DNA of 64,000 nt from Escherichia coli (GTDB lineage Bacteria > Pseudomonadota > Gammaproteobacteria > Enterobacterales > Enterobacteriaceae): the NCBI RefSeq assembly GCF_044647545.1, contig NZ_CP172818.1; one strand, given 5' to 3'. The translations under genes and the position numbers were made by a program. Shown here one piece after another: positions 3,615 to 64,000 of this stretch; position 1 is the stretch's first letter; the number at the start of each line of letters is the position of its first letter. The notes under the pieces were generated by a model. That model was not told where the DNA came from and did no database searches. It worked only from the letters and a program-made list of their open reading frames with translations.

Positions 3615-4988
3615 TTAACTCCGCTTATACAGCGGCAACCAAATCACCAGCCGTAAACCGCCCAGCGGGCTGTCTTCTGCTTTAACCCAGCCGCGATGCT
3701 GCTGAATGGCGGTTTCAACAATCGCCAGCCCCAAACCTGTACCGCCAGATTCACGATCGCGTGCTTCATCGGTACGATAGAACGGACGGAAAATCTGTTC
3801 GCGATCTTCCGGGCTAACGCCAGGACCATCGTCGTCCACCGTAATGGTGATACCGTCTTTATCTACCGCAAAGCCCACTTCAATCTTCGTATGGGAATAA
3901 CGCAGAGCATTACGAACAATGTTTTCCAGCGCACTTTCCAGGGCGTTCGGATTGCCGTACAGCGGCCACGGCCCAGGCGGGAAGTTAACTGTCAACGACT
4001 TGCCCATTTGCTCGGCTTCGAACGCCGCGTTATCCAGCACTTCACTCCACAACTGATTGGCTTTGATGGTCTCGCTAACCAGCGCGTTTTTTTGCTGATT
4101 ACGTGACATCACCAACAGGTCGTTAATCATGCTGTCCAGACGTTGCGCTTCGGTTTCAATACGCTCCAGTTCCTTGCTTTCACCGCTACGACGGCGCAGT
4201 AACGCCGTACCCAGTTGTAGACGCGTCAGCGGGGTGCGCAGCTCGTGAGAGATATCAGAAAGCAGACGCTGCTGAGAGGTCATCATGCGCTCCAGCGCGG
4301 TGACCATCTGGTTAAAACTGGCACCAGCGGCAAGGAATTCCTGTGGCCCCGCTTCAAGTTCCGGGTGCTGGCGTAAGTTTCCCTGGGCAACTTCATCGGC
4401 AGCGTTTTTCAGCTTACGCGCCGGTTTTGCCAGACTCCAGGCCAACCACAACAGAAGCGGCGTACTGACCAACATGGTGACAATCAGCAGTAATAGCGGG
4501 CGGTCAAACAGTAAGTTAATGAAATCGGATTGAGAACTGCTGGCCGGACGAATCAGATAAAGTTGGTAATTATCTTCGCCATCACGCACGGAGAACGGAC
4601 CGACCAGTTCCACGCGGCCATACTTTTTCTTCTGCGGATGATCGGCGTTATCGGCCTGACCAATAAAGTTACGAATGATCTGCATTTCGCTGCGTTCAGC
4701 GCCGATCACGCGGCCTTCGGTGGTCACCAATAACAAACGCTGTCCTGGCGGTGCCCACTTATCAATCGCCCGGAACAGACGCCGCCACCACATTAAATCA
4801 TTGGGCGGATCGTTCGCCAGCTCCGCTTCGACATGCTGCTCAATCATCAGACCCTGACGCTGTTCGCTATCCAGAAGCTCGGTCATCTGGCGTGAATCGA
4901 GCTTGGGTAACATCAAAACCAACATCAACACCAGCGCCAGCGTCAGCCAGAAGATGGCGAAGATGCGCGCGGTTAAGCTGCCTATCAT
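3615..4988 (-). CDS. cpxA: envelope-stress sensor histidine kinase CpxA
   Basis: 457-aa ORF MIGSLTARIFAIFWLTLALVLML... with HAMP/HisKA/HATPase sequence features. Confidence 0.97.
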   Translation of the reverse strand: MIGSLTARIFAIFWLTLALVLMLVLMLPKLDSRQMTELLDSEQRQGLMIEQHVEAELANDPPNDLMWWRRLFRAIDKWAPPGQRLLLVTTEGRVIGAERSEMQIIRNFIGQADNADHPQKKKYGRVELVGPFSVRDGEDNYQLYLIRPASSSQSDFINLLFDRPLLLLIVTMLVSTPLLLWLAWSLAKPARKLKNAADEVAQGNLRQHPELEAGPQEFLAAGASFNQMVTALERMMTSQQRLLSDISHELRTPLTRLQLGTALLRRRSGESKELERIETEAQRLDSMINDLLVMSRNQQKNALVSETIKANQLWSEVLDNAAFEAEQMGKSLTVNFPPGPWPLYGNPNALESALENIVRNALRYSHTKIEVGFAVDKDGITITVDDDGPGVSPEDREQIFRPFYRTDEARDRESGGTGLGLAIVETAIQQHRGWVKAEDSPLGGLRLVIWLPLYKRS

Positions 4989-5683
4989 GAAGCAGAAACC
5001 ATCAGATAGCCGCGACCACGCAAGGTTTTAAACCACGGGTGACCATCTTTACGATCCGGCAGTTTACGACGCAGGTTGGAAATGTGCATATCAATAGCGC
5101 GGTCGAAAGGCGTCAGGCGTTTGCCCAGCACTTCCTGGCTTAAATGCTCACGGGAAACCACCTGACCCAGATGCTGTGCCAGCAAATAGAGCAGGGTAAA
5201 CTCAGTGCCGGTTAACTCCAGCGTTTGCCCGTCGAAGCTGGCTTCCTGACGGCCTGGATTCAGCACTAAGGCATCAACTTCCAGTGTCGGTGAACCGTTG
5301 TCGTTGTTTTGCTGTTGCTCGCTCCAGTGCGAACGGCGCAGGATCGCGCGAATACGTGCCACCAGCTCACGATCATTAAACGGTTTCGGGAGATAGTCAT
5401 CTGCGCCCAGCTCAAGGCCGAGAACGCGATCAAGTTCACTGCCGCGCGCCGTCAACATAATGACAGGCGTCTGGTGTGTCTGGCGAAGTGCTTTTAATGT
5501 GTCGATACCATTTTTCTTCGGCATCATTACATCAAGCAAAAGTAAATCAATGCTGTCGTCCAGAAGATCAAGCGCCTGTTCCCCATCGTGGGCAACAATC
5601 ACGTTGAAGCCTTCCATCTCGAGCAGCTCCTTTAATAGGGAAGTCAGCTCTCGGTCATCATCAACTAACAGGATTTTATTCAT
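4985..5683 (-). CDS. cpxR: envelope-stress response regulator CpxR (OmpR family)
   Basis: 232-aa ORF MNKILLVDDDRELTSLLKELLEMEGFNV...; 4-bp overlap with cpxA start. Confidence 0.97.
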   Translation of the reverse strand: MNKILLVDDDRELTSLLKELLEMEGFNVIVAHDGEQALDLLDDSIDLLLLDVMMPKKNGIDTLKALRQTHQTPVIMLTARGSELDRVLGLELGADDYLPKPFNDRELVARIRAILRRSHWSEQQQNNDNGSPTLEVDALVLNPGRQEASFDGQTLELTGTEFTLLYLLAQHLGQVVSREHLSQEVLGKRLTPFDRAIDMHISNLRRKLPDRKDGHPWFKTLRGRGYLMVSAS

Positions 5684-10752: not shown

Positions 10753-11520
10753 TTAAGCCTGTTTAGCCGCTTCTGCAGCTTTAACGATCACGGCGAAAGC
10801 GTCAGCTTTCAGAGAAGCACCGCCAACCAGCGCGCCGTCGATGTCTGGCTGAGCAAACAGTTCTGCAGCGTTAGACGCGTTTACAGAGCCGCCGTACTGG
10901 ATGATCACTTGTTCAGCGATGTTAGCGTCAACTTTAGCAATGTGGTCACGGATGAATTTGTGAACAGCCTGTGCCTGAGCCGGAGTTGCAGATTTGCCAG
11001 TACCGATTGCCCATACGGGTTCGTAAGCGATAACCGCACCTTCGAATGCCGCAGCACCCTGAGTTTTCAGTACCGCGTCGATCTGACGTGCACAAACTTC
11101 TTCAGTTTTGCCCGCTTCGTTTTCCGCTTCGGTTTCACCGATGCACAGAACCGGAGTCAGACCCTGCTCTTTCAGCACCGCGAATTTTTTCGCGATCAGT
11201 TCGTCAGACTCTTTGTGGTAAGTACGACGTTCAGAGTGGCCGATGATGATGTACTGTGCGCCGATGTCTTTCAGCATAGCAGCAGAGGTTTCACCGGTGA
11301 ATGCGCCGGACAGGTTCAGGTCCACGTTTTGCGCACCCAGCATGATGTGGCTGCCTTCAGCTTCGCGCTTCGCCATATCGATGTACATTTCCGGTGGTGC
11401 GATTGCAACCGCACAGCCAGCAACACCTGCCAGCTCTTTACGCAGGTTAGAAACCAGCTCGTGAACCATGTGGCGGCTGCCGTTCAGTTTCCAGTTACCC
11501 ATCACTAAAGGATGTCGCAT
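10753..11520 (-). CDS. tpiA: triosephosphate isomerase
   Basis: 255-aa [35 protein letters not shown]... Confidence 0.97.
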
Positions 11521-11627
11521 TTTAATTCTCCACGCTTATAAGCGAATAAAGGAAGATGGCCGCCCCGCAGGGCAGCAGGTCTGTGAAACAGTATAGAGAT
11601 TCATCGGCACAAAGGCTTTGCTTTTTG

Positions 11628-27299: not shown

Positions 27300-27908
27300 T
27301 TACCACGAAAACAGCGGCCATTCTTTGGCGACTGTGGTGAGTTGTGGCGCATCGAAAACGGCTTGTGGCGAGACCACCGTTTCCTCAAGCGGGATATTTT
27401 TGCCGTAGCGTTCTTTGAGCTTCGTCTGAACCAGCGGGTTACTAAGATCGAACTCTTTCAACTTCTGCTGTTCACCTACGCGCATCCCCAGCGCATTCTG
27501 GTAAACTTTCCACACCACTTCCGAACAGTACTGGCGATCGTCGCTCCATGAGAAGCTGAAATCATACGGTTTGCCGAGATAACGTTTTGCCGTTTGCGCC
27601 AGTTTTTGCTGTTGTTCAACACTCAGTCCGCCTTCAACGCGGCGAACAACGTACTTACCCTTTTCACCATGGGCGATCCACTGCTTGAGCGGGGTGTATT
27701 TCACCGGGCCGACCGCTTCAAAAACGTAGGGCTTTTTGTTGCGTATCACCAGCATACCGGTGTGGCTGTAATCGGAATGGGTCGCCAGTTGGATCGCTTT
27801 ACTTTGCGATGAGCGAGAGATCTGAAAGATGATGTCGCCGGTTTGTGGTTGCCAGGCAAATGCAGGCACAGAAACCAGCAGGCCGGGGATCAGTAGCCTG
27901 ATTTTCAT
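27300..27908 (-). CDS. yiiX: putative peptidoglycan peptidase / lipid-binding hydrolase YiiX
   Basis: 202-aa ORF MKIRLLIPGLLVSVPAFAWQPQTGDIIFQISRSSQSKAIQLATHSDYSHTG... with signal peptide. Confidence 0.9.
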   Translation of the reverse strand: MKIRLLIPGLLVSVPAFAWQPQTGDIIFQISRSSQSKAIQLATHSDYSHTGMLVIRNKKPYVFEAVGPVKYTPLKQWIAHGEKGKYVVRRVEGGLSVEQQQKLAQTAKRYLGKPYDFSFSWSDDRQYCSEVVWKVYQNALGMRVGEQQKLKEFDLSNPLVQTKLKERYGKNIPLEETVVSPQAVFDAPQLTTVAKEWPLFSW

Positions 27909-27926
27909 AGTTAAACGTCCATGTAT

Positions 27927-27957
27927 GAAAAAAGCGGCTGGTTAACTCCGCGCCGCT
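27927..27957 (-). terminator. candidate rho-independent terminator of metJ
   Basis: Reverse strand hairpin agcggc-(13 nt loop)-gccgct followed by T6, just downstream of metJ stop. Confidence 0.5.
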
Positions 27958-27967
27958 CTTTTCCGTT

Positions 27968-28285
27968 TTAGTATTCCCACGTCTCCGGGTTAATCCCCAT
28001 CTCACGCATGATCTCTTTTGCCGCTTCCGGGATTTCGTCGCTGCGCTCTTTACGCAGGTCGGCATCATCCGGCAGAGGTTGCCCGGTAAAGGCATGCAGA
28101 AACGCTTCGCACAGCAGCTCGCTGTTGGTCGCGTGACGCAGGTTGTTCACCTGACGACGCGTGCGTTCATCGGTGAGGATTTTTAACACCTTAAGAGGAA
28201 TGGAAACCGTAATCTTTTTGACTTGTTCACTCTTCTTGCCGTGCTCAGCGTATGGGCTGATATATTCGCCGCTCCATTCAGCCAT
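27968..28285 (-). CDS. metJ: methionine repressor MetJ
   Basis: ORF 27968..28423; start at ATG 28285 ([35 protein letters not shown]...) gives 105 aa. Confidence 0.96.
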
Positions 28286-28473
28286 GAGATACTTAATCCT
28301 CTTCGTCAATAAATTGAGACCAGACCACACAGTTAATGTGGGTACTGACCGTAAACCCGCATAGTTTACCGTACAGGCGTTACCGTGACATCGTGTAATG
28401 CACCTGTCGGCGTGATAATGCATATAATTTTAACGGCTATTTGAGATTTGCTCAATCTATACGCAAAGAAGTT

Positions 28474-28506
28474 TAGATGTCCAGATGTATTGACGTCCAT
28501 TAACAC
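28474..28506. promoter_or_regulatory. tandem MetJ boxes in metJ/metB divergent control region
   Basis: agatgtcc-agatgtat-tgacgtcc-attaacac, tandem 8-bp repeats resembling the met box AGACGTCT. Confidence 0.7.
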
Positions 28507-28561
28507 AATGTTTACTCTGGTGCCTGACATTTCACCGACCAAGCCCAGGGAACTTCATCAC

Positions 28562-29722
28562 ATGACGCGTAAACAGGCCACCATCGCAGTGCGTAGCGGG
28601 TTAAATGACGACGAACAGTATGGTTGCGTTGTCCCTCCCATCCATCTTTCCAGCACCTATAACTTTACCGGATTTAATGAACCGCGCGCGCATGATTACT
28701 CGCGTCGTGGCAACCCAACGCGCGATGTGGTTCAGCGTGCGCTGGCAGAACTGGAAGGCGGTGCCGGTGCCGTACTTACTAATACCGGCATGTCCGCGAT
28801 TCACCTGGTCACTACCGTCTTTTTGAAACCTGGCGATCTGCTGGTTGCGCCACACGACTGCTACGGAGGTAGCTATCGCCTGTTCGACAGCCTGGCGAAA
28901 CGCGGTTGCTATCGCGTGTTGTTTGTTGATCAAGGCGATGAACAAGCATTACGGGCAGCGCTGGCAGAAAAACCCAAACTGGTACTGGTAGAAAGCCCAA
29001 GTAATCCATTGTTACGCGTCGTGGATATTGCGAAAATCTGCCATCTGGCAAGGGAAGTCGGGGCGGTGAGCGTGGTGGATAACACCTTCTTAAGCCCGGC
29101 ATTACAAAATCCGCTGGCATTAGGTGCCGATCTGGTGTTGCATTCATGCACGAAATATCTGAACGGTCACTCAGACGTGGTGGCCGGCGTGGTGATTGCT
29201 AAAGATCCGGACGTTGTCACTGAACTTGCCTGGTGGGCAAACAATATTGGCGTGACGGGCGGCGCGTTTGACAGCTATCTGCTGCTACGTGGTTTGCGAA
29301 CGCTGGTGCCGCGTATGGAGCTGGCCCAGCGCAACGCGCAGGCGATTGTGAAATATCTACAAACCCAGCCGTTGGTGAAAAAACTGTATCACCCGTCGCT
29401 GCCGGAAAATCAGGGGCATGAAATTGCCGCGCGCCAGCAAAAAGGCTTTGGCGCAATGTTGAGTTTTGAACTGGATGGCGATGAGCAGACGCTGCGTCGT
29501 TTCCTGGGTGGGCTGTCGTTGTTTACGCTGGCGGAATCATTAGGGGGGGTGGAAAGTTTAATCTCTCACGCCGCAACCATGACACATGCAGGCATGGCAC
29601 CAGAAGCGCGTGCTGCCGCCGGGATCTCCGAGACGCTGCTGCGTATCTCCACCGGTATTGAAGATGGCGAAGATTTAATTGCCGACCTGGAAAATGGCTT
29701 CCGGGCTGCAAACAAGGGGTAA
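28562..29722 (+). CDS. metB: cystathionine gamma-synthase
   Basis: ORF 28448..29722; start at ATG 28562 (MTRKQATIAVRSGLNDDEQYGCVVPPIHLSSTYNF...) gives 386 aa. Confidence 0.97.
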   Translation: MTRKQATIAVRSGLNDDEQYGCVVPPIHLSSTYNFTGFNEPRAHDYSRRGNPTRDVVQRALAELEGGAGAVLTNTGMSAIHLVTTVFLKPGDLLVAPHDCYGGSYRLFDSLAKRGCYRVLFVDQGDEQALRAALAEKPKLVLVESPSNPLLRVVDIAKICHLAREVGAVSVVDNTFLSPALQNPLALGADLVLHSCTKYLNGHSDVVAGVVIAKDPDVVTELAWWANNIGVTGGAFDSYLLLRGLRTLVPRMELAQRNAQAIVKYLQTQPLVKKLYHPSLPENQGHEIAARQQKGFGAMLSFELDGDEQTLRRFLGGLSLFTLAESLGGVESLISHAATMTHAGMAPEARAAAGISETLLRISTGIEDGEDLIADLENGFRAANKG

Positions 29723-29724
29723 AA

Positions 29725-32157
29725 ATGAGTGTGATTGCGCAGGCAGGGGCGAAAGGTCGTCAACTGCATAAATTTGGTGGCAGTAGTCTGGCTGATGTGA
29801 AGTGTTATTTGCGTGTCGCGGGCATTATGGCGGAGTACTCTCAGCCTGACGATATGATGGTGGTTTCCGCCGCCGGTAGCACCACTAACCAGTTGATTAA
29901 CTGGTTGAAACTAAGCCAGACCGATCGTCTCTCTGCGCATCAGGTTCAACAAACGCTGCGTCGTTATCAGTGCGATCTGATTAGCGGCCTGCTACCCGCT
30001 GAAGAAGCCGATAGCCTCATTAGCGCTTTTGTCAGCGATCTGGAACGCCTGGCGGCGCTGCTCGACAGCGGTATTAACGATGCGGTGTATGCGGAAGTGG
30101 TGGGCCACGGTGAAGTGTGGTCGGCGCGCCTGATGTCTGCGGTACTTAATCAACAAGGGCTGCCAGCGGCCTGGCTTGATGCCCGCGAGTTTTTACGCGC
30201 TGAACGCGCCGCGCAGCCGCAGGTTGATGAAGGGCTTTCTTACCCGTTGCTGCAACAGCTACTGGTACAACATCCGGGCAAACGTCTGGTGGTGACCGGG
30301 TTTATCAGCCGTAACAACGCCGGTGAAACGGTGCTGCTGGGGCGTAACGGTTCCGACTATTCCGCGACACAAATCGGTGCGCTGGCGGGTGTTTCTCGCG
30401 TAACCATCTGGAGCGACGTCGCCGGGGTATATAGCGCCGACCCGCGTAAAGTGAAAGATGCCTGCCTGCTGCCGTTGCTGCGTCTTGATGAAGCCAGTGA
30501 ACTGGCGCGTCTGGCGGCCCCCGTTCTTCACGCCCGTACTTTACAGCCAGTATCCGGTAGTGAAATCGACCTGCAACTGCGCTGTAGCTACACGCCGGAT
30601 CAAGGTTCCACGCGCATTGAACGCGTGCTGGCTTCCGGTACTGGCGCGCGTATTGTCACCAGCCACGATGATGTCTGTTTGATTGAGTTTCAGGTGCCTG
30701 CCAGTCAGGATTTCAAACTGGCGCATAAAGAGATCGACCAAATCCTGAAACGTGCTCAGGTGCGCCCACTGGCGGTTGGCGTACATAACGATCGCCAGTT
30801 GCTGCAATTTTGCTACACCTCGGAAGTGGCCGATAGTGCGCTGAAAATTCTCGACGAAGCGGGATTACCTGGCGAACTGCGCCTGCGTCAGGGGCTGGCG
30901 CTGGTGGCGATGGTTGGGGCGGGCGTAACCCGTAACCCGCTGCATTGCCACCGCTTCTGGCAGCAACTGAAAGGCCAGCCGGTCGAATTTACCTGGCAGT
31001 CCGATGACGGCATCAGCCTGGTGGCAGTACTGCGCACCGGGCCGACCGAAAGCCTGATTCAGGGTCTGCATCAGTCCGTCTTTCGCGCGGAAAAACGCAT
31101 CGGCCTGGTATTGTTCGGCAAGGGCAATATCGGTTCCCGCTGGCTGGAACTGTTCGCCCGTGAGCAGAGCACGCTTTCGGCGCGTACCGGCTTTGAATTT
31201 GTGCTGGCAGGCGTGGTGGACAGCCGCCGCAGCCTGTTGAGCTATGACGGGCTGGACGCCAGCCGCGCGTTAGCCTTCTTCAACGATGAAGCGGTCGAGC
31301 AGGATGAAGAGTCGCTGTTCCTGTGGATGCGCGCCCATCCGTATGATGATTTAGTGGTGCTGGACGTTACCGCCAGCCAGCAGCTTGCTGATCAGTATCT
31401 CGATTTTGCCAGCCACGGTTTCCACGTCATCAGCGCCAACAAACTGGCGGGAGCCAGCGACAGCAATAAATATCGCCAGATCCACGACGCCTTCGAAAAA
31501 ACCGGGCGTCACTGGCTGTACAATGCCACTGTCGGTGCGGGTTTGCCGATCAACCATACCGTGCGCGATCTGATCGACAGCGGCGATACCATTTTGTCGA
31601 TCAGTGGGATCTTCTCTGGCACGCTCTCCTGGCTGTTCCTGCAATTCGACGGTAGCGTGCCGTTTACCGAGCTGGTGGATCAGGCGTGGCAGCAGGGCTT
31701 AACCGAGCCTGATCCGCGTGATGACCTTTCCGGCAAAGACGTGATGCGCAAGCTGGTGATTCTGGCGCGTGAAGCGGGTTACAACATTGAACCGGACCAG
31801 GTGCGTGTTGAATCACTGGTGCCAACCCATTGCGAAGGTGGAAGCATCGACCATTTCTTTGAAAATGGCGATGAACTTAATGAGCAGATGGTACAACGGT
31901 TGGAAGCGGCCCGTGAAATGGGGCTGGTGTTGCGCTACGTGGCGCGTTTCGATGCCAACGGCAAAGCGCGAGTAGGCGTGGAAGCGGTGCGAGAAGACCA
32001 TCCGCTGGCATCACTACTACCGTGCGATAACGTCTTTGCCATCGAAAGCCGCTGGTATCGCGACAACCCGCTGGTGATCCGCGGGCCAGGTGCAGGGCGC
32101 GATGTCACCGCCGGGGCGATTCAGTCGGATATTAACCGTCTGGCGCAGTTGTTGTAA
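29725..32157 (+). CDS. metL: bifunctional aspartokinase II / homoserine dehydrogenase II
   Basis: 810-aa ORF MSVIAQAGAKGRQLHKFGGSSLADVKCYLRVAGIMAEY...; 2-bp spacer after metB. Confidence 0.97.
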   Translation: MSVIAQAGAKGRQLHKFGGSSLADVKCYLRVAGIMAEYSQPDDMMVVSAAGSTTNQLINWLKLSQTDRLSAHQVQQTLRRYQCDLISGLLPAEEADSLISAFVSDLERLAALLDSGINDAVYAEVVGHGEVWSARLMSAVLNQQGLPAAWLDAREFLRAERAAQPQVDEGLSYPLLQQLLVQHPGKRLVVTGFISRNNAGETVLLGRNGSDYSATQIGALAGVSRVTIWSDVAGVYSADPRKVKDACLLPLLRLDEASELARLAAPVLHARTLQPVSGSEIDLQLRCSYTPDQGSTRIERVLASGTGARIVTSHDDVCLIEFQVPASQDFKLAHKEIDQILKRAQVRPLAVGVHNDRQLLQFCYTSEVADSALKILDEAGLPGELRLRQGLALVAMVGAGVTRNPLHCHRFWQQLKGQPVEFTWQSDDGISLVAVLRTGPTESLIQGLHQSVFRAEKRIGLVLFGKGNIGSRWLELFAREQSTLSARTGFEFVLAGVVDSRRSLLSYDGLDASRALAFFNDEAVEQDEESLFLWMRAHPYDDLVVLDVTASQQLADQYLDFASHGFHVISANKLAGASDSNKYRQIHDAFEKTGRHWLYNATVGAGLPINHTVRDLIDSGDTILSISGIFSGTLSWLFLQFDGSVPFTELVDQAWQQGLTEPDPRDDLSGKDVMRKLVILAREAGYNIEPDQVRVESLVPTHCEGGSIDHFFENGDELNEQMVQRLEAAREMGLVLRYVARFDANGKARVGVEAVREDHPLASLLPCDNVFAIESRWYRDNPLVIRGPGAGRDVTAGAIQSDINRLAQLL

Positions 32158-32178
32158 TTTCAGTACTCTAAAATGCCC

Positions 32179-32227
<49 letters not shown>

Positions 32228-32245
32228 GCATGTATTTGAACGGCG

Positions 32246-32274
32246 TTTAAAATGGTTTTAAATGAAACTATAAT
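32246..32274 (+). promoter_or_regulatory. promoter-like element TTTAAA-N17-TATAAT facing the T-depleted tract
   Basis: Perfect -10 hexamer TATAAT at 32269..32274 with TTTAAA 17 bp upstream; no evidence of use. Confidence 0.3.
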
Positions 32275-32377
32275 GCGGTAACGATAGGTATTGAAACGCG
32301 TGATGAAATTAAATGCTACAACGTTATACGACGAACTCAAAGGCAAGGTGATTTGACTTCCTGATCACGAAGTGTTC

Positions 32378-32925
32378 CGGCCCGGCAGCCAAAAGGGGGG
32401 AAAAAGCGGCGCGGAAAAAAAAAAAGCGGGAGGGGAAAGGGGGGATAACCGGGGAGCAAAGGCGGCGAAAGCGAAAAACAAAACGCAAACCCACAAACGG
32501 AGGGGGGCGAAAGGAGAACAAAAAGAAAAGGCGAAAGAAAAAAACGCAAAACCAACGCGACGAGGAAGGCCCAACCGGCAAAAAAAAAAGCAACGACGGA
32601 AAAAAAAGTGAGAAGTGGCAACAAACGGCGCGCAACGCGAAAAAACGTCAGGAACGCCCCAGGAAGGGGTGAGCGGGGCGGGGGGGAAAAACCACCACGC
32701 AACAGCGCGGGAGCCGGGGGGGAGAGGCGCCACACAAACGAAGAAGAAGGGAAAAAAAAAAGGAGGGGGGAGAAAGGAAAAGGGAAAAAAGAACGACACA
32801 ACGGGGGCGGGGAAACAAGAACCAAAGAGCGCCAAAACAGGAAGGACACAAGGAAAGCGCGTAAACAAGGGCGGATACAAACAAACGGAAACCACAGAGA
32901 ACAGACAAGGAGGAAAAAAAAACCA
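32378..32925 (+). repeat. T-depleted low-complexity tract (A/G/C only, about half A)
   Basis: Only 7 T in about 548 nt by direct count; many G3-G7 and A5-A10 runs; all six frames open because stop codons cannot occur. Confidence 0.9.
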
Positions 32926-33229
32926 ATAAAGTACGTGTTGAGTTGATTTTCATTTGTTTGTTACCCAGTTGATTTTGCATATCCAGTATTCGGCCTACGC
33001 GAGGGCGCAGGCCGAATCAGATGTCTTACAACAACAATCCGGTGCGACACGTTGTTTTTCGAAGAAGCCCAGGGTCCGTGTTCAGAATAACAGCAAAAAG
33101 GGGGAGGGGATGCGGCACAAAAAAAATCTTTTATCGCCTCTAATTAAGATGAAGTTTTTTCAACTTCCCTGATTTTTCCTCACCATCATTGGTCATTTTT
33201 CGGTTGACGCCCCTCGGCTTTTCCTTCAT

Positions 33230-38347: not shown

Positions 38348-38490
38348 CTGGTTCGTCCGTGAAAATAAGAGTCACAGATTCGACCTTCCGGGCTAACGAT
38401 TGTTCTGTAGAGAAAATGTCCAGAAGCGGATAAAAAATTCCTGAACAACGTGGGAGTTTCAGACATAACTATAAAAATCTCAACACCCCT

Positions 38491-38565
38491 TTGGGAGAGA
38501 GTCAGGGTGAGGAGGAACAGGCCAGCTCCGGGGCGAATAATCACCCTCACCCCGACCCTCTCCCT
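38491..38565. repeat. imperfect inverted repeat in yijF-gldA spacer
   Basis: gggagagagtcagggtgagg at 38491..38510 pairs with ccctcaccccgaccctctccc at 38545..38565 across a ~34-nt loop; family not identified. Confidence 0.5.
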
Positions 38566-38657
38566 GAAAGGGCGAGGGGGAAAAACATGCCCGCAGTGAC
38601 GAGTGAGCCACTTTGCCTGATCTCAAACTCCCGGACAAGCCGGGAGTTTGGAGTAGG

Positions 38658-57206: not shown

Positions 57207-58580
57207 ATGGCACTTTGGGGCGGGCGTTTTACCCAGGCAGCAGATCAACGGTTCAAACAATTCAACGACTCACTGCGCTTTGATTACCGTCTGGCGGAGC
57301 AGGATATTGTTGGCTCTGTGGCCTGGTCCAAAGCCCTGGTAACGGTCGGCGTGTTAACCGCAGAAGAGCAGGCGCAACTGGAAGAGGCGCTGAACGTGCT
57401 GCTGGAAGATGTTCGCGCCAGGCCACAACAAATCCTTGAAAGCGACGCCGAAGATATCCATAGCTGGGTGGAAAGCAAACTGATCGACAAAGTGGGTCAG
57501 TTAGGCAAAAAGCTGCATACCGGGCGTAGCCGTAATGATCAGGTAGCGACTGACCTGAAACTGTGGTGCAAAGATACCGTTAGCGAGTTGCTGACGGCTA
57601 ACCGGCAGTTACAATCCGCTCTGGTCGAGACCGCGCAGAACAATCAGGACGCGGTAATGCCAGGTTACACCCACCTGCAACGTGCTCAACCGGTGACGTT
57701 CGCGCACTGGTGCCTGGCTTACGTGGAGATGCTGGCGCGTGATGAAAGCCGCTTGCAGGATGCGCTTAAGCGTCTGGATGTCAGTCCGTTAGGCTGTGGC
57801 GCGCTGGCGGGAACGGCTTATGAAATCGACCGTGAACAGTTAGCTGGCTGGCTGGGCTTTGCTTCAGCGACCCGTAACAGTCTCGACAGCGTTTCTGACC
57901 GTGACCACGTGCTGGAACTGCTTTCTGCTGCCGCTATCGGCATGGTGCATCTGTCGCGTTTTGCTGAAGATCTGATTTTCTTTAACACCGGCGAAGCGGG
58001 GTTTGTCGAGCTTTCTGACCGTGTGACTTCCGGTTCATCATTAATGCCGCAGAAGAAAAACCCGGATGCGCTGGAGCTGATTCGCGGTAAATGCGGTCGG
58101 GTGCAGGGGGCGTTAACCGGCATGATGATGACGCTGAAAGGTTTGCCGCTGGCTTACAACAAAGATATGCAGGAAGACAAAGAAGGTCTGTTCGACGCGC
58201 TCGATACCTGGCTGGACTGCCTGCATATGGCGGCGCTGGTGCTGGATGGCATTCAGGTGAAACGTCCGCGTTGCCAGGAAGCGGCGCAGCAGGGTTACGC
58301 CAACGCCACTGAACTGGCGGATTACCTGGTGGCGAAAGGCGTACCGTTCCGCGAGGCGCACCATATTGTTGGTGAAGCGGTGGTGGAAGCCATTCGTCAG
58401 GGCAAACCGCTGGAAGAACTACCGCTCAGTGAGTTGCAGAAATTCAGTCAGGTGATTGGCGAAGATGTCTATCCGATTCTGTCGCTACAATCGTGCCTCG
58501 ACAAGCGTGCGGCAAAAGGCGGCGTCTCACCGCAGCAGGTGGCGCAGGCGATTGCTTTTGCGCAGGCTCGGTTAGAGTAA
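57207..58580 (+). CDS. argH: argininosuccinate lyase
   Basis: 457-aa [47 protein letters not shown]... Confidence 0.97.
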
Positions 58581-60904
58581 GAAATTTTCATCTACTAAAT
58601 TTGATCACCAACCAAAAATAGCACTTCCATATTCATTAATACCGTAAAATCAAGACCGACACGTTTACCAACAACACCAGATATTCAAAACATCAAAAAA
58701 AACATGGCAGAAGTAATTGAAAATAACCAAGGACGAAATCTCGGCACATTTAAAATGATTAATGCAATCGGATATGGGAGAATTAACATGCCATATTAAA
58801 TATTCTCGAAAAGTAGTCCGCTGCTTATCTAAAAGATCATTTCTCTTCAGAAGAAATTTTCAGCGATAACAGGAGCATGGAAGAATAATGGCAACTCCTC
58901 TCTTGAATGTAGAAGGGGACAAGACCCGTCAAGAGGTTAGCTATAACAGACAATAATATAATAATGAAAAATATTAAAGCAAAGTTTGATATTGACCAGA
59001 ACAAAATTTCGGTACCTTACAATAAACACCGTAAGCGGATATTGCCAAATCAGAGAGCGCACAATAAATGAACCGAAGAAGACTACGCAAATCATCAGAA
59101 AAATCAATTTAATCCAAAACTAATTCACCGCGATGCACCCCGTATCCAAAACATTTATCAATTCTGAAGAAAGAAGCATACTCGCGACGACCCCCAACCA
59201 AGAGGTCGGGCACGGAAGACCAGGAGAGGCGTCATAAAAGTATAAAGATAAAACACCAAATATACCAGAATATCAACGTATTAAGTGCGCTTCTAACGAA
59301 CATCTGATGCATGATATCCACAACCCCCGGACCCCGATCGAAGAGGCCCGTGAAGAGAAGAGCAAGACGACACATCCTCTTTAAGATGAAACATGCGAAG
59401 CGCGCTGTAACCCAGAAATGAATCAGTTTTGTTCGGCGAAGACTAAAAGACCGATCGGAACCGGAAATCTAAAACCTTACTCGGAATACAAGCAGTTGAT
59501 CGAAGAAAAGTATATCGATTTTATACCGAAGATGATTAAACCGCAGGCAATAATATCGGGATGAAACAAAATCCCGATCATGACACGCATCATCACCTAA
59601 CTCCCACGCACAGCCCTTCAGATATAACCACTGAGGATTATCCCCGTTCTTGAAGGTAGATCTCACGCTTCCAAACATACGGAATGTTATCGGCGGATTC
59701 ACAATATATGAAGTCATCCCGAATACCTGCCGCGCGAGGAAAACATATCACCAAGGCAAGCAATTAAGCGAAGAGCAGCCTATCAACAAAAATCGCACGA
59801 CGAATATCCATATAACCCGGATTACCTCCACGTACACAATCCAATATGGCATATCTTGGAAAGGACATAACAGTTCGCATAATCATTCACTTCAAACGCA
59901 TCTAATCCATTCATTCCCCTAAATATTTAAAAATGGATGCCGAACTTTCAACTACAGGAGCACAAGGAATAGCAACAAAAAAGGCTTGATCCGACACTAA
60001 TACCTGGCGCATCAATGAAGGTGGGAATCATCAATTCCATCGACCGTTCCTCAGTAATCCTTCAATCAAAAAGATCGTCGAAAGATACGAATGACCCCGA
60101 CTGAATTCCCCTCTCACCACTCGGAGATGGCACTTTTCCGTACACGGAATAACAGAACGCCCAACCAGTATCTGGATAGACAGCTTATCCACAAGAATAC
60201 TTAAAGACCCAAAAATAGAATTCGGGGCATTAATCCGTGCAGCAACAAAAAAACTGCAATCGATTAGCCGTATTATTACAATAACTATCGGTTTATTAAT
60301 TATGGAGGCGACAGTTAATTCCCCCGACCGAACCTAACACAGACTGGTAGGCGAAAAGAAAATTGGAGAGGAAGGATTATCGGAGATTTAACTCAGCGAC
60401 TGTTATCTCTGCGGTTATTCTGTCCCCATCGTTTTTAATAACGCATTTCGCTTTTTTCCTACACCCATTTGTCCCACTAATAGTTTTGGGCGGGGGCCTT
60501 TTATTCTCGGCAGCGATGCAGACATGAACAGAAATGATTAATGCTGATCGCCACGCTATTTAGACGCCGACCGGGCGGAGAAGCGGAGAACCGCCATTTA
60601 TTCCGGTGGGAGGAAGACCGAACAACGAACGGTATGGGCAGAAAGAACCCCCCCCACGGCCCAGGGGGTATTTTACACATCAATCGTGATCTGCCGCGCG
60701 CATGCCCCTGCAACACCTGTATTGAGATAGCTGCCGTTGATCTGGCTCGAAATATTGTCACACCTCGATTCCTTCCCCCATTAACTATTTTCACCCGAAA
60801 CTACGACCCGAAACCGTAAAACTATTCTTTAACCATTACACGTCTTCGTCAATCCCCCCCACCCACTTACTTTATCTCAACCTTTCTGCATTTTCCGGAA
60901 ACCA
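58581..60904. other. anomalous ORF-poor, A-rich intergenic insertion between argH stop and oxyS
   Basis: argH-oxyS spacer is 2385 bp here versus under 0.1 kb as I recall for K-12; no ORF of 60 aa or more in 58581..59468 or 59923..60500; plus strand about 40% A; right boundary approximate. Confidence 0.6.
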
Positions 60905-60965
60905 GGGGATTGCAGATTAACAAAATGGCTTCCATCGCCGGGATTCAAAACTTTGGCAAAAAAAA

Positions 60966-61074
60966 GCGGATCCTGGAGATCCGCAAAAGTTCACGTTGGC
61001 TTTAGTTATTCGAGTTGAGAAACTCTCGAAACGGGCAGTGACTTCAAGGGTTAAAAGAGGTGCCGCTCCGTTTC
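60966..61074 (-). ncRNA. oxyS: OxyS oxidative-stress small RNA
   Basis: Reverse complement reads GAAACGGAGCGGCACCTCTTTTAACCCTTGAAGTCACTGCCCGTTTCGAGAGTTTCTCAACTCGAATAACTAAAGCCAACGTGAACTTTTGCGGATCTCCAGGATCCGC with terminator hairpin and U-run, matching OxyS as recalled. Confidence 0.9.
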
Positions 61075-61169
61075 TGTGAGCAATTATCAGTCAGAATGCT
61101 TGATAGGGATAATCGTTCATTGCTATTCTACCTATCGCCATGAACTATCGTGGCGATGGAGGATGGATA
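61075..61169. promoter_or_regulatory. oxyR/oxyS divergent promoter region containing the OxyR binding site
   Basis: Position between divergent oxyS and oxyR; contains gatagggataatcgttcattgctattctacctatcgccatgaactatcgtggcgatgg with ATAG/CTAT-type OxyR contacts; exact footprint not resolved. Confidence 0.6.
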
Positions 61170-62087
61170 ATGAATATTCGTGATCTTGAGTACCTGGTGG
61201 CATTGGCTGAACACCGCCATTTTCGGCGTGCGGCAGATTCCTGCCACGTTAGCCAGCCGACGCTTAGCGGGCAAATTCGTAAGCTGGAAGATGAGCTGGG
61301 CGTGATGTTGCTGGAGCGGACCAGCCGTAAAGTGTTATTCACCCAGGCGGGAATGCTGCTGGTGGATCAGGCGCGTACCGTGCTGCGTGAGGTGAAAGTC
61401 CTTAAAGAGATGGCAAGCCAGCAGGGCGAGACGATGTCCGGACCGCTGCATATTGGTTTGATTCCCACGGTTGGACCGTACCTGCTACCGCATATTATCC
61501 CGATGCTGCACCAGACCTTTCCAAAGCTGGAAATGTATCTGCATGAAGCACAGACCCACCAGTTACTGGCGCAACTGGACAGCGGCAAGCTCGATTGCGT
61601 GATCCTCGCGCTGGTGAAAGAGAGCGAAGCATTCATTGAAGTGCCGTTGTTTGATGAGCCAATGTTGCTGGCTATCTATGAAGATCACCCGTGGGCGAAC
61701 CGCGAATGCGTACCGATGGCCGATCTGGCAGGAGAAAAACTGCTGATGCTGGAAGATGGTCACTGTTTGCGCGATCAGGCAATGGGGTTCTGTTTTGAAG
61801 CCGGGGCGGATGAAGATACACACTTCCGCGCGACCAGCCTGGAGACGCTGCGCAACATGGTGGCGGCAGGTAGCGGGATCACTTTATTGCCAGCGCTGGC
61901 TGTGCCGCCGGAGCGCAAACGCGATGGGGTTGTTTATCTGCCGTGCATTAAGCCGGAACCACGCCGCACTATTGGCCTGGTTTATCGTCCTGGCTCACCA
62001 CTGCGCAGCCGCTATGAGCAGCTGGCAGAGGCCATCCGCGCAAGAATGGATGGCCATTTCGATAAAGTGTTAAAACAGGCGGTTTAA
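61170..62087 (+). CDS. oxyR: LysR-family oxidative-stress regulator OxyR
   Basis: ORF 61140..62087; start at ATG 61170 ([44 protein letters not shown]...) gives 305 aa. Confidence 0.97.
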
Positions 62088-63470
62088 GCCATTTAGCGCA
62101 GCTACCCGATAGGCTTCCGCCATCGTCGGGTAGTTAAAGGTGGTGTTGACGAAGTACTCAATAGTGTTGCCGCCACCTTTCTGTTCCATAATCGCCTGAC
62201 CGATATGAATAATTTCGGCAGCGCGCTCGCCAAAGCAGTGAATACCCAGAATCTCTTTTGTTTCCCGATGGAACAAAATTTTCAGCGTGCCCACGTTCAT
62301 GCCGACGATTTGTGCACGTGCCAGATGTTTAAACTGGGCGCGGCCCACTTCATATGGCACTTTCATCGCGGTTAGCTGCTGTTCGGTTTTGCCCACAGAG
62401 CTGATTTCCGGGATGGTGTAAATGCCGGTAGGGATATCTTCAATCAGATGTGCGTTGGCTTCACCTTTCACCAGCGCTTGCGCGGCAATGCGCCCCTGGT
62501 CATAGGCTGCCGACGCCAGGCTCGGATAACCAATCACGTCGCCCACCGCGTAAACGTGCGGCTGTGCGGTCTGATACATGCTGTTGACCTTCAGCTGTCC
62601 GCGACTGTCAGTTTCCAGCCCAATGTTCTGTAACGCCAGCGAATCGGTATTACCGGTGCGACCGTTGGCATAGAGCAGACAGTCAGCTTTCAGTTTTTTA
62701 CCCGACTTCAGATGCATGATCACACCGTCGTCACAGCCTTCGATCTTCTCGTACTCTTCGTTGTGACGAATCACTACGCCACTGTTCCAGAAGTGATAGG
62801 AGAGAGAATCTGACATCTCTTGATCGAGAAACGCCAACAGCCGATCGCGGGTGTTGATCAGATCCACTTTTACATCCATACCGCGGAAGATCGACGCATA
62901 TTCACAGCCGATCACTCCAGCACCATAGATAAGTACATGGCGCGGTTCGTGGTGCATGCTAAGAATTGAGTCGCTGTCGTAAATGCGTGGATGGGTGAAA
63001 TCAACATCTGTTGGATGATATGGACGAGAGCCGCAGGCAATAACAAATTTTTCAGCGGTTAGTGTTTCAACGCTGCCGTCCGGGCAATCCAGCGCCAACG
63101 TATGCTCGTCAACAAAGCGAGCGTTCCCCTGCAATATTTCACAGTGATTACGTTCGTAAAATCCCTGACGCATGCGCGTTTGTTGGTTAATCACGTTATC
63201 GGCATGGTTAAGGATATCGGCAAAAGAAGAGCGGAGCAGTCGGGAATGGTCGCTGTATAGTGGGTTTTGATTAAATTCTATAATGCGGCTGACGGCGTGA
63301 CGGAGAGCTTTCGACGGGATGGTGCCCCAGTGGGTGCAACCGCCGCCAACATTTTGATAACGCTCGATAACTGCGACGCGCGCACCTTGCTTAACCAGGC
63401 CCATTGCAGCGCCTTCGCCGCCGGGGCCGGAACCTATTACTATGGCATCGTAATCGTAGGAATGTGGCAT
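62070..63470 (-). CDS. sthA: soluble pyridine nucleotide transhydrogenase
   Basis: 466-aa [57 protein letters not shown]...; 18-bp convergent overlap with oxyR. Confidence 0.97.
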
Positions 63471-63803
63471 GGTAGGGCTTACCTGTTCTTATACATAAAA
63501 GCAACAGAATGGTAACATTTTATCGCGGGTAAGCCAATTGATCCCCGTCATTTATCTGGCTATATCGTGAGCGGCCTTTGCTTTGTCTGTTTCTTACTTT
63601 TGACCTGAACGTTTTATTGGATTTTTATCGACGATACTCTCCGTTTAAGCGGCAGGTTTCCGTTGTACGTAAAAGAACCGGCCAAAGAATTGCAGTAAAT
63701 ATGTTTTATTGCGTTACCGTTCATTCACAACACTGGAGCAATCCAGTATGTTCATTCTCTGGTATAGTGCCAGCAGTACTTTTGGCAAGGATTCAGACAT
63801 CGT

Positions 63804-64000
63804 GATGGGCGTAAGAGCGCAACAAAAAGAAAAAACCCGCCGTTCGCTGGTGGAAGCCGCATTTAGCCAATTAAGTGCTGAACGCAGCTTCGCCAGCCTG
63901 AGTTTGCGTGAAGTGGCGCGTGAAGCGGGCATTGCTCCCACCTCTTTTTATCGGCATTTCCGCGACGTAGACGAACTGGGTCTGACCATGGTTGATGAGA
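63804..64000 (+). CDS. fabR: TetR-family fatty-acid biosynthesis regulator FabR, N-terminal part; gene runs off the window end
   Basis: Translation from ATG 63804 reads [65 protein letters not shown]; an in-frame upstream ATG at 63747 ([19 protein letters not shown]) is an alternative start. Confidence 0.88.

Follow-up and report, generated by a model that had tools for sequence, protein, structure and literature searches.

A composition switch between argH and oxyS in an Escherichia coli sequence lies within a single corrupted copy of the manD-MFS island

The interval between argH and oxyS measures 54 nt in Escherichia coli K-12 but 2,384 nt in the sequence studied here, a stretch of 64,000 nt that we refer to as the window. 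What fills this interval, and does the change in base composition within it, at about 60400, mark a joint between pieces of different origin? A preliminary description of the same DNA had taken the latter view, proposing that the block is composite, with more than one origin, and not one degenerated gene, and had named different artefact processes as the other possibility. Our data show that the block at 58581-60918 is a single-origin copy of the strain's own manD-MFS island, in its native allele. We consider it very probable that this copy reached its present state through non-biological corruption. The genes that frame the block are all intact:

57207..58580, plus strand: argH, a 457-aa open reading frame (ORF) whose stop codon is the left edge of the corrupted block
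60965..61074, minus strand: the small RNA OxyS (Rfam RF00035, 139.5 bits, E 3e-30), the right edge of the block
61170..62087, plus strand: oxyR, with its ATG at 61170 and its ORF end at 62087, following the annotation of the identical reference; given for context only

The locus beneath the block and its single origin

Most of the window can be compared directly with the genome of FDAARGOS_497 (NZ_CP033850.1), which served as our reference. Positions 1-27291 differ from it by 1 mismatch, 27299-32158 and 60959-64000 are 100% identical to it, and 32928-58580 shows 99.7% identity, with argE-argH at 99.8%. In FDAARGOS_497, ST648 and Nissle 1917, the space between argH and oxyS is occupied by manD, encoding a D-mannonate dehydratase of the enolase superfamily, and by a gene for an MFS transporter. 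This locus is polymorphic, the island being present in 1,866 of 5,426 complete E. coli genomes and absent from K-12. The manD-MFS accessory island that underlies the block is an ordinary one, found in many non-K-12 E. coli. A search of the literature on ManD in E. coli returned nothing useful.

When the block was compared by megablast with the 5,426 complete genomes, the sole match was a stretch of 40 nt (60919-60958) within a gene annotated as MFS transporter, found in 1,866 genomes. Sensitive blastn, followed by pairwise alignments to the island, gave one collinear place for 58678-60760, which is 89% of the block, at 64.2% identity (E about 1e-62; 139 genomes). This high-scoring segment pair (HSP) spans manD and the MFS gene and runs across position 60392, where the composition switches, and the pairwise alignments agree with it. 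Identity of the block to the island is about 64-70%, manD maps to approximately 58964-60149, and the MFS gene starts at about 60215. Some 83 nt of the reference spacer directly after argH are absent from the block. For the first 24 nt after argH, megablast extension had raised a K-12-like origin, which we rejected, as the reference spacer minus its G/T-rich pieces fits these positions better. The remaining end of the block continues the same MFS gene: 60755-60918 is a 98% subsequence of its next 278 nt, with a longest common subsequence (LCS) of 161 of 164 nt, where shuffles reach 125±2.4 and randomly drawn genomic pieces 127±3.7.

These alignments refute the proposal of more than one origin, in which the sequence left of about 60400 and that to its right would come from different sources. 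A composite insertion would account for the significant compositional change point at 60392. It would also account for the outcome of the separate BLAST of the right part that the preliminary description had suggested: on its own, this part gave no match at E<=1e-5 in our "distant" search of E. coli genomes and plasmids. The missing stand-alone match is, however, explained by the low identity of this part, about 70% over 360 nt, in a search of a 28-Gb database, and pairwise alignment places it in the MFS gene. Moreover, a single HSP crosses the switch, which coincides with no boundary of a gene or element but falls some 175 nt into the MFS gene, and the 98% subsequence tail belongs to the same gene. 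One database match covering the block was the observation that the preliminary description itself had set against its composite reading, and 58678-60760 together with the tail amounts to just that. Two different sources are thus exceedingly improbable. The wording "rather than a single degenerated gene" in the preliminary description is about half correct: the degradation is indeed unlike natural decay, but what is degraded is one two-gene locus and not several pieces.

The block also carries the marks of a particular allele. The 276-nt deletion in the MFS gene that distinguishes FDAARGOS_497 from Nissle is common to the block, and at the sites separating the F-type (FDAARGOS_497) from the Nissle allele, the block agrees with F-type, Nissle and neither at 47, 7 and 16 sites, respectively. 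Retention at these diagnostic sites, 67%, equals the block-wide identity. This equality implies that no extra real divergence lies underneath the damage, and that the damage is later than the F-type allele.

Little coding capacity is left. The longest ORF in the block has 97 aa, each frame contains 33 to 44 stops, and none of the block ORFs matched Pfam, whereas the reference proteins match MR_MLE_N/C and MFS_1 (1e-46, 7e-34, and 1e-42). Mismatches in manD are spread evenly over codon positions 1, 2 and 3 (33, 35 and 30%; p = 0.32), and the MFS gene is likewise flat (p = 0.55). The similarity to the reference at the protein level, 23-45%, is confined to short pieces that lie dispersed among the three frames. 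The block is a copy of the island, and it is not a pair of functional manD and MFS genes.

The same observations bear on the idea that the block is a distant natural manD-MFS homologue, recombined from another genus and then inactivated. A nucleotide identity of 64% would be typical of inter-genus orthologues. Third codon positions, however, are not enriched in mismatches, the protein similarity is low and broken up over the three frames, and the block carries both the 276-nt deletion and the diagnostic single-nucleotide polymorphisms (SNPs) of the F-type E. coli allele. We regard this origin as having almost no probability.

The composition switch and three error regimes

If the block has one source throughout, the switch in composition has to arise from what happened to that source. 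Alignment to the reference island resolves the block into three error regimes, followed by a short stretch in which the island is nearly unaltered:

58581..60391, plus strand: regime I, comprising, in corrupted form, the left spacer, manD and the opening ~175 nt of the MFS gene, from the collinear alignment
60392..60749, plus strand: regime II, in the same MFS gene, from the change point and the substitution spectrum; the stretch previously described as C/T-richer
60750..60918, plus strand: regime III, where the MFS gene is corrupted by deletion only, from the LCS and the alignment to the reference
60919..60958, plus strand: a near-perfect stretch of the MFS gene, 40 nt with one 1-nt gap, from megablast and alignment

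Beyond 60958, a clean 189-nt deletion takes the 3' end of the MFS gene together with the spacer up to the oxyS terminator.

Regime I, measured over 58605-60391, has 33.7% mismatch and few indels, with a transition/transversion ratio (Ts/Tv) of 0.50, and 45% of its substitutions are to A. Complementary changes occur at unequal rates, differing by up to approximately 10-fold (T>A at 0.207 versus A>T at 0.025, and G>C at 0.185 versus C>G at 0.019), and a reference A is retained in 88-90% of cases, while G and T are retained in about 50%. Regime II has a similar Ts/Tv (0.57), about 31% mismatch and almost no indels, and the substituting bases are more evenly shared (A.25, C.31, G.28, T.16). In regime III, about 278 nt of reference are squeezed into 164 nt, with approximately 115 nt dropped and just 19 substitutions and 3 insertions in the alignment. 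The loss depends on the reference base, amounting to 71% of G, 33% of T, 30% of C and 19% of A.

The composition of the block follows these regimes. We segmented 58581-60918 by maximum likelihood, with 300 permutations as the null. The strongest break falls at 60392, with a log-likelihood ratio (LLR) of 18.9, compared with a permutation maximum of 12.8 (n=300). The frequencies of A, C, G and T are 0.38, 0.23, 0.18 and 0.21 to its left and 0.24, 0.29, 0.20 and 0.27 to its right, so that C+T rises from 44% to 56% and A falls from 38% to 24%, and over 60300-60600 the AT skew drops from between +0.2 and +0.4 to between -0.08 and -0.17. The change to C/T-richer sequence at about 60400 noted in the preliminary description is thereby borne out. 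A second break, at 60750, is weaker and lies inside the null range (LLR 8.6; null maximum 10.4), and beyond it G makes up 10% of the sequence. The FDAARGOS_497 reference has no matching shifts: its A content goes from 0.24 to 0.19 to 0.17, and its G content reaches up to 0.34 where that of the window is 0.10. The switch at 60392 is a change of error mode, not of source, with the spectrum passing from A-ward substitutions to balanced substitutions and then to G-biased deletions. The other possibility raised at the outset, that different artefact processes produced the block, is supported by this sequence of spectra.

The homopolymer runs of the right part can be traced to the reference in the same way:

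60648..60655, plus strand: C8 run, derived in the alignment from reference CGCGGC by three G>C changes and two extra C's
60664..60668, plus strand: G5 run, reference GGGG plus one
60854..60860, plus strand: C7 run, reference CCTCCTCGCC minus T, T and G

Each C run consists of C's that became adjacent when G or T was lost, or of G's turned to C. Both C runs had been located exactly in the preliminary description, and they exceed chance expectation: two C runs of at least 7 within 60400-60918 (519 nt) were reached in 0.16% of 20,000 mononucleotide shuffles, and the 55.4 kb of clean window sequence contain only 2 G/C runs of at least 7. The G5 run, previously placed at about 60665..60669 and described as facing the C runs, does exist, although one base off, but the implied pairing does not stand. 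The C8/G5 hairpin has a predicted energy of -14.3 kcal/mol (z = +0.73), and 156 of 200 shuffles were at least as stable. In a search of 57500-62000 against Rfam at E<=1, OxyS was the sole match. With a fold not above shuffles and no Rfam match besides OxyS, we discarded the reading of this part as a structured RNA or hairpin. The C8/G5 pair forms no structure, and the block has no function.

Damage elsewhere in the window and biological explanations

The block is one of several damaged segments. Across 52 kb compared with FDAARGOS_497, all differences lie within 3.5 kb for which K-12 has no homologue, or at the edges of these segments, while 48,466 nt of K-12-homologous sequence contain zero differences in their interiors, synonymous and intergenic sites included. 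One such segment, 32159-32927, begins with a run of 43 A's (A43), followed by about 500 nt with hardly any T. It aligns with the 5'-nucleotidase gene of the reference as a copy whose degradation is progressive and which re-locks near the gene end, and its deletions comprise 167 T, 92 C, 75 G and 42 A. This sequence was found in no complete E. coli genome searched. In a further segment, 38464-38620, a strain-specific intergenic element shows G dropout at its start.

A divergence of about 35% beside tens of kilobases with zero differences is not one that accumulated naturally. This is the main difficulty for natural pseudogene decay, in which an inactivated island would have drifted neutrally, the block representing an intermediate towards the clean deletion seen in K-12. 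Such a course would fit a block that is collinear with both genes and has lost its ORFs, at a locus that is polymorphic among complete genomes (1866/5426) and absent from K-12. Yet the divergence stands against 0-0.3% in the adjacent tens of kilobases, the Ts/Tv of 0.5 comes with a strand asymmetry of up to 10-fold, and regime III drops 71% of its G's with almost no substitutions. By comparison, the difference between the natural F-type and Nissle alleles of the island is 3%, made up of 70 transitions and 18 transversions (Ts/Tv 3.9). Natural relics in E. coli and Shigella resemble the block in that an accessory locus has lost its reading frames, but they show changes of a few percent, IS insertions or deletions, and transition-rich, strand-symmetric spectra, none of which is seen in the block. 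In addition, the equal retention at diagnostic and other sites dates the damage after the F-type allele, the 5,426 complete E. coli genomes hold neither the block nor any intermediate, and the same damage, including the A43 run, recurs in other accessory patches. Neutral decay is, in our judgment, very unlikely.

A second biological explanation is localized hypermutation in vivo, natural or engineered, by a deaminase fusion, an error-prone polymerase or a diversity-generating retroelement. It could explain sharp edges against perfectly conserved flanks and a strand-asymmetric spectrum. The individual agents, however, fit poorly. A deaminase would be expected to cause transitions only (C>T / G>A), whereas here transversions account for 65% of the changes and regime III is one of deletions. 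A diversity-generating retroelement targets A, the base that is best preserved here (88-90%). No reverse transcriptase lies nearby, the block has no ORF longer than 97 aa, and the genes on either side are argH and oxyR. Hypermutation would also have had to hit several accessory patches, unlinked and spread over 30 kb, with every core gene spared, and we know of no in vivo mechanism that produces base-specific deletions and homopolymer junk. Hypermutation of this kind is highly improbable.

The block would be biologically remarkable only if the scrambled sequence were physically real. A conservation-aware process would then have hypermutated acquired segments or deleted bases from them while sparing core genes, a proposition that we hold to be extremely unlikely. 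The segments concerned would be manD-MFS, the 5'-nucleotidase island and strain-specific intergenic elements. Taken together, all the biological rivals retain a very small share of the probability.

A probable technical origin of the damage

We therefore return to non-biological corruption of the native manD-MFS island, which we consider very probable, and for which we infer a technical cause. The block would have about the quality of a raw single-pass read, or a worse one, or would have been degraded in silico by some other route. Sequence shared with common E. coli came out free of errors, and the remainder very poorly. Up to 60392, G, T and C are replaced mostly by A; balanced substitutions follow; and from about 60750 it is mainly bases, above all G, that are dropped.

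Two candidate processes may be considered. In the first, a backbone would have been polished by a reference or by short reads, and the insertions filled with a raw single-molecule read. In this scenario, the changes of regime would reflect changes in signal quality or in the read. Known error rates are similar in level. Raw first-generation nanopore reads have been reported with 38.2% error (PMC4691839), and another study of raw nanopore reads gives 67.4% accuracy, with 24.2% mismatch, 7.5% insertions and 8.3% deletions (PMC5093776). The error of the block, about 33-38%, dominated by mismatches and blind to genes and codons, is comparable with that of raw MinION reads of the R7 era. Indels in regimes I and II, though, are rarer (about 3-5% each) than the 7.5% and 8.3% of the latter study. 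A raw long-read artefact would furthermore need an extra step of selective polishing for its errors to be confined to accessory segments. To our knowledge, no sequencing platform shows 71% G dropout, near-total loss of T or a run of 43 A's.

In the second candidate process, a generative or lossy reconstruction would have skipped characters, drifted to homopolymers and re-locked onto familiar sequence. By general resemblance, the window may be likened to the output of such a process: it is perfect on common E. coli sequence and poor on accessory DNA, and it appears to decay progressively and then to re-lock. Jumps at short shared words, such as that from TTTGGCA to the K-12-like GGCAAAAAAAAGCGG, would fit such a process, and so would the mixture of K-12-like and F-type (FDAARGOS_497-type) words over a few nucleotides at the metL junction. 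Free generation, on the other hand, would be unusual in keeping exact strain-specific SNPs over tens of kilobases. Raw-read filler and generative or lossy reconstruction thus stand as two candidates, neither of which we favour.

The block was also sought outside complete E. coli genomes. Two exact k-mers from it were absent from GTDB representative genomes and JGI metagenomes, and six products of its ORFs were absent, by exact look-up, from a collection of 15 billion proteins. Since k-mer and protein look-ups of this kind find exact matches only, absence from these public collections is weak evidence.

For users of the sequence, these results have value mainly as quality control. The window consists of a faithful E. 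coli backbone in which several accessory stretches are corrupted, and findings made in 58581-60958, 32159-33154 and 38464-38620 are best taken as noise over known genes and not as a new element. Should the window derive from a deposited assembly, the entry gives a false picture of an intact manD-MFS locus and needs re-polishing.

Edges of the argH–oxyS block

The corrupted argH–oxyS block, a scrambled copy of the manD and MFS-transporter island that the close relative FDAARGOS_497 carries intact, is bounded by two clean deletions, the right one of which recreates a K-12-like GGCAAAAAAAAGCGG at its junction:

58580/58581, left deletion: about 83 nt of reference spacer, including the hairpin GCTCCCCTGAAAATGGGGAGC, gone right after the argH stop
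60958/60959, right deletion: 189 nt gone, comprising the 3' end of the MFS gene plus the spacer that precedes the oxyS terminator

Altered stretches between metL and metF

The stretch at 32159-32927 had no match among complete E. coli genomes. Its 769 nt represent a compressed form of a single reference feature:

Reference island of 2.8 kb, corresponding to window 32159-32927: genes for a hypothetical protein and a metallophosphatase/5'-nucleotidase

The stretch aligns to the 3' part of the 5'-nucleotidase gene with T's deleted, the degradation being progressive. It includes a run of 43 A's (32182-32224), followed by about 500 nt that are nearly T free, and its overall base composition is 46% A, 29% G, and 8% T. 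Immediately 3' of the metL stop, window 32150-32182 reads TAATTTCAGTACTCTAAAATGCCCGGTA, in which the K-12-like words TAATTTCAG and CCCGGTA are mixed at the scale of a few nucleotides with a word from FDAARGOS_497; the word TTCAGTACTCTAAAATGCCCG in this segment stands 395 nt further on in FDAARGOS_497.

For a patch (32937-33154) within the strain-specific spacer upstream of metF, the highest identity to any complete genome was 90.9%. This patch differs from FDAARGOS_497 at 35 places, counting mismatches and indels together, and its end coincides exactly with the return of K-12 homology (33150).

Intergenic differences at other K-12 homology breaks

Between yijF and gldA, where K-12 has a different, REP-like sequence, the window carries a strain-specific intergenic element (38464-38620) with 26 differences from the reference. 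These differences are mostly G's dropped at its start, with, for example, GGGTG and GCCCCCTCT lost, and identity is regained after the damaged start. Two small deletions relative to FDAARGOS_497 each lie exactly at the edge of a K-12 homology break, in REP-type intergenic regions:

49148: deletion of 1 nt (T)
54041: deletion of 7 nt (CATTGTT)

Candidate natural variation

The MFS transporter gene occurs in two lengths in the loci compared:

Nissle 1917 locus (L001), 3907-5190: MFS transporter gene, 1,284 nt
FDAARGOS_497/ST648-type reference locus (L002), 11255-12262: MFS transporter gene, 1,008 nt

Relative to the Nissle 1917 gene, the shorter form has an internal in-frame deletion of 276 nt. 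Although RefSeq continues to list this form as an intact coding sequence, it may have lost its function naturally. The window also lacks the 7.4-kb rhsC/IS1 region found between rpmE and yiiX in FDAARGOS_497, having in its place the K-12-like empty-site sequence TGGTCGT (27292-27298). The strains may truly differ here, or the absence may belong to the same reconstruction artifact. The first 27.3 kb are otherwise identical to FDAARGOS_497, with a sole mismatch at position 2803 that is probably a genuine SNP.
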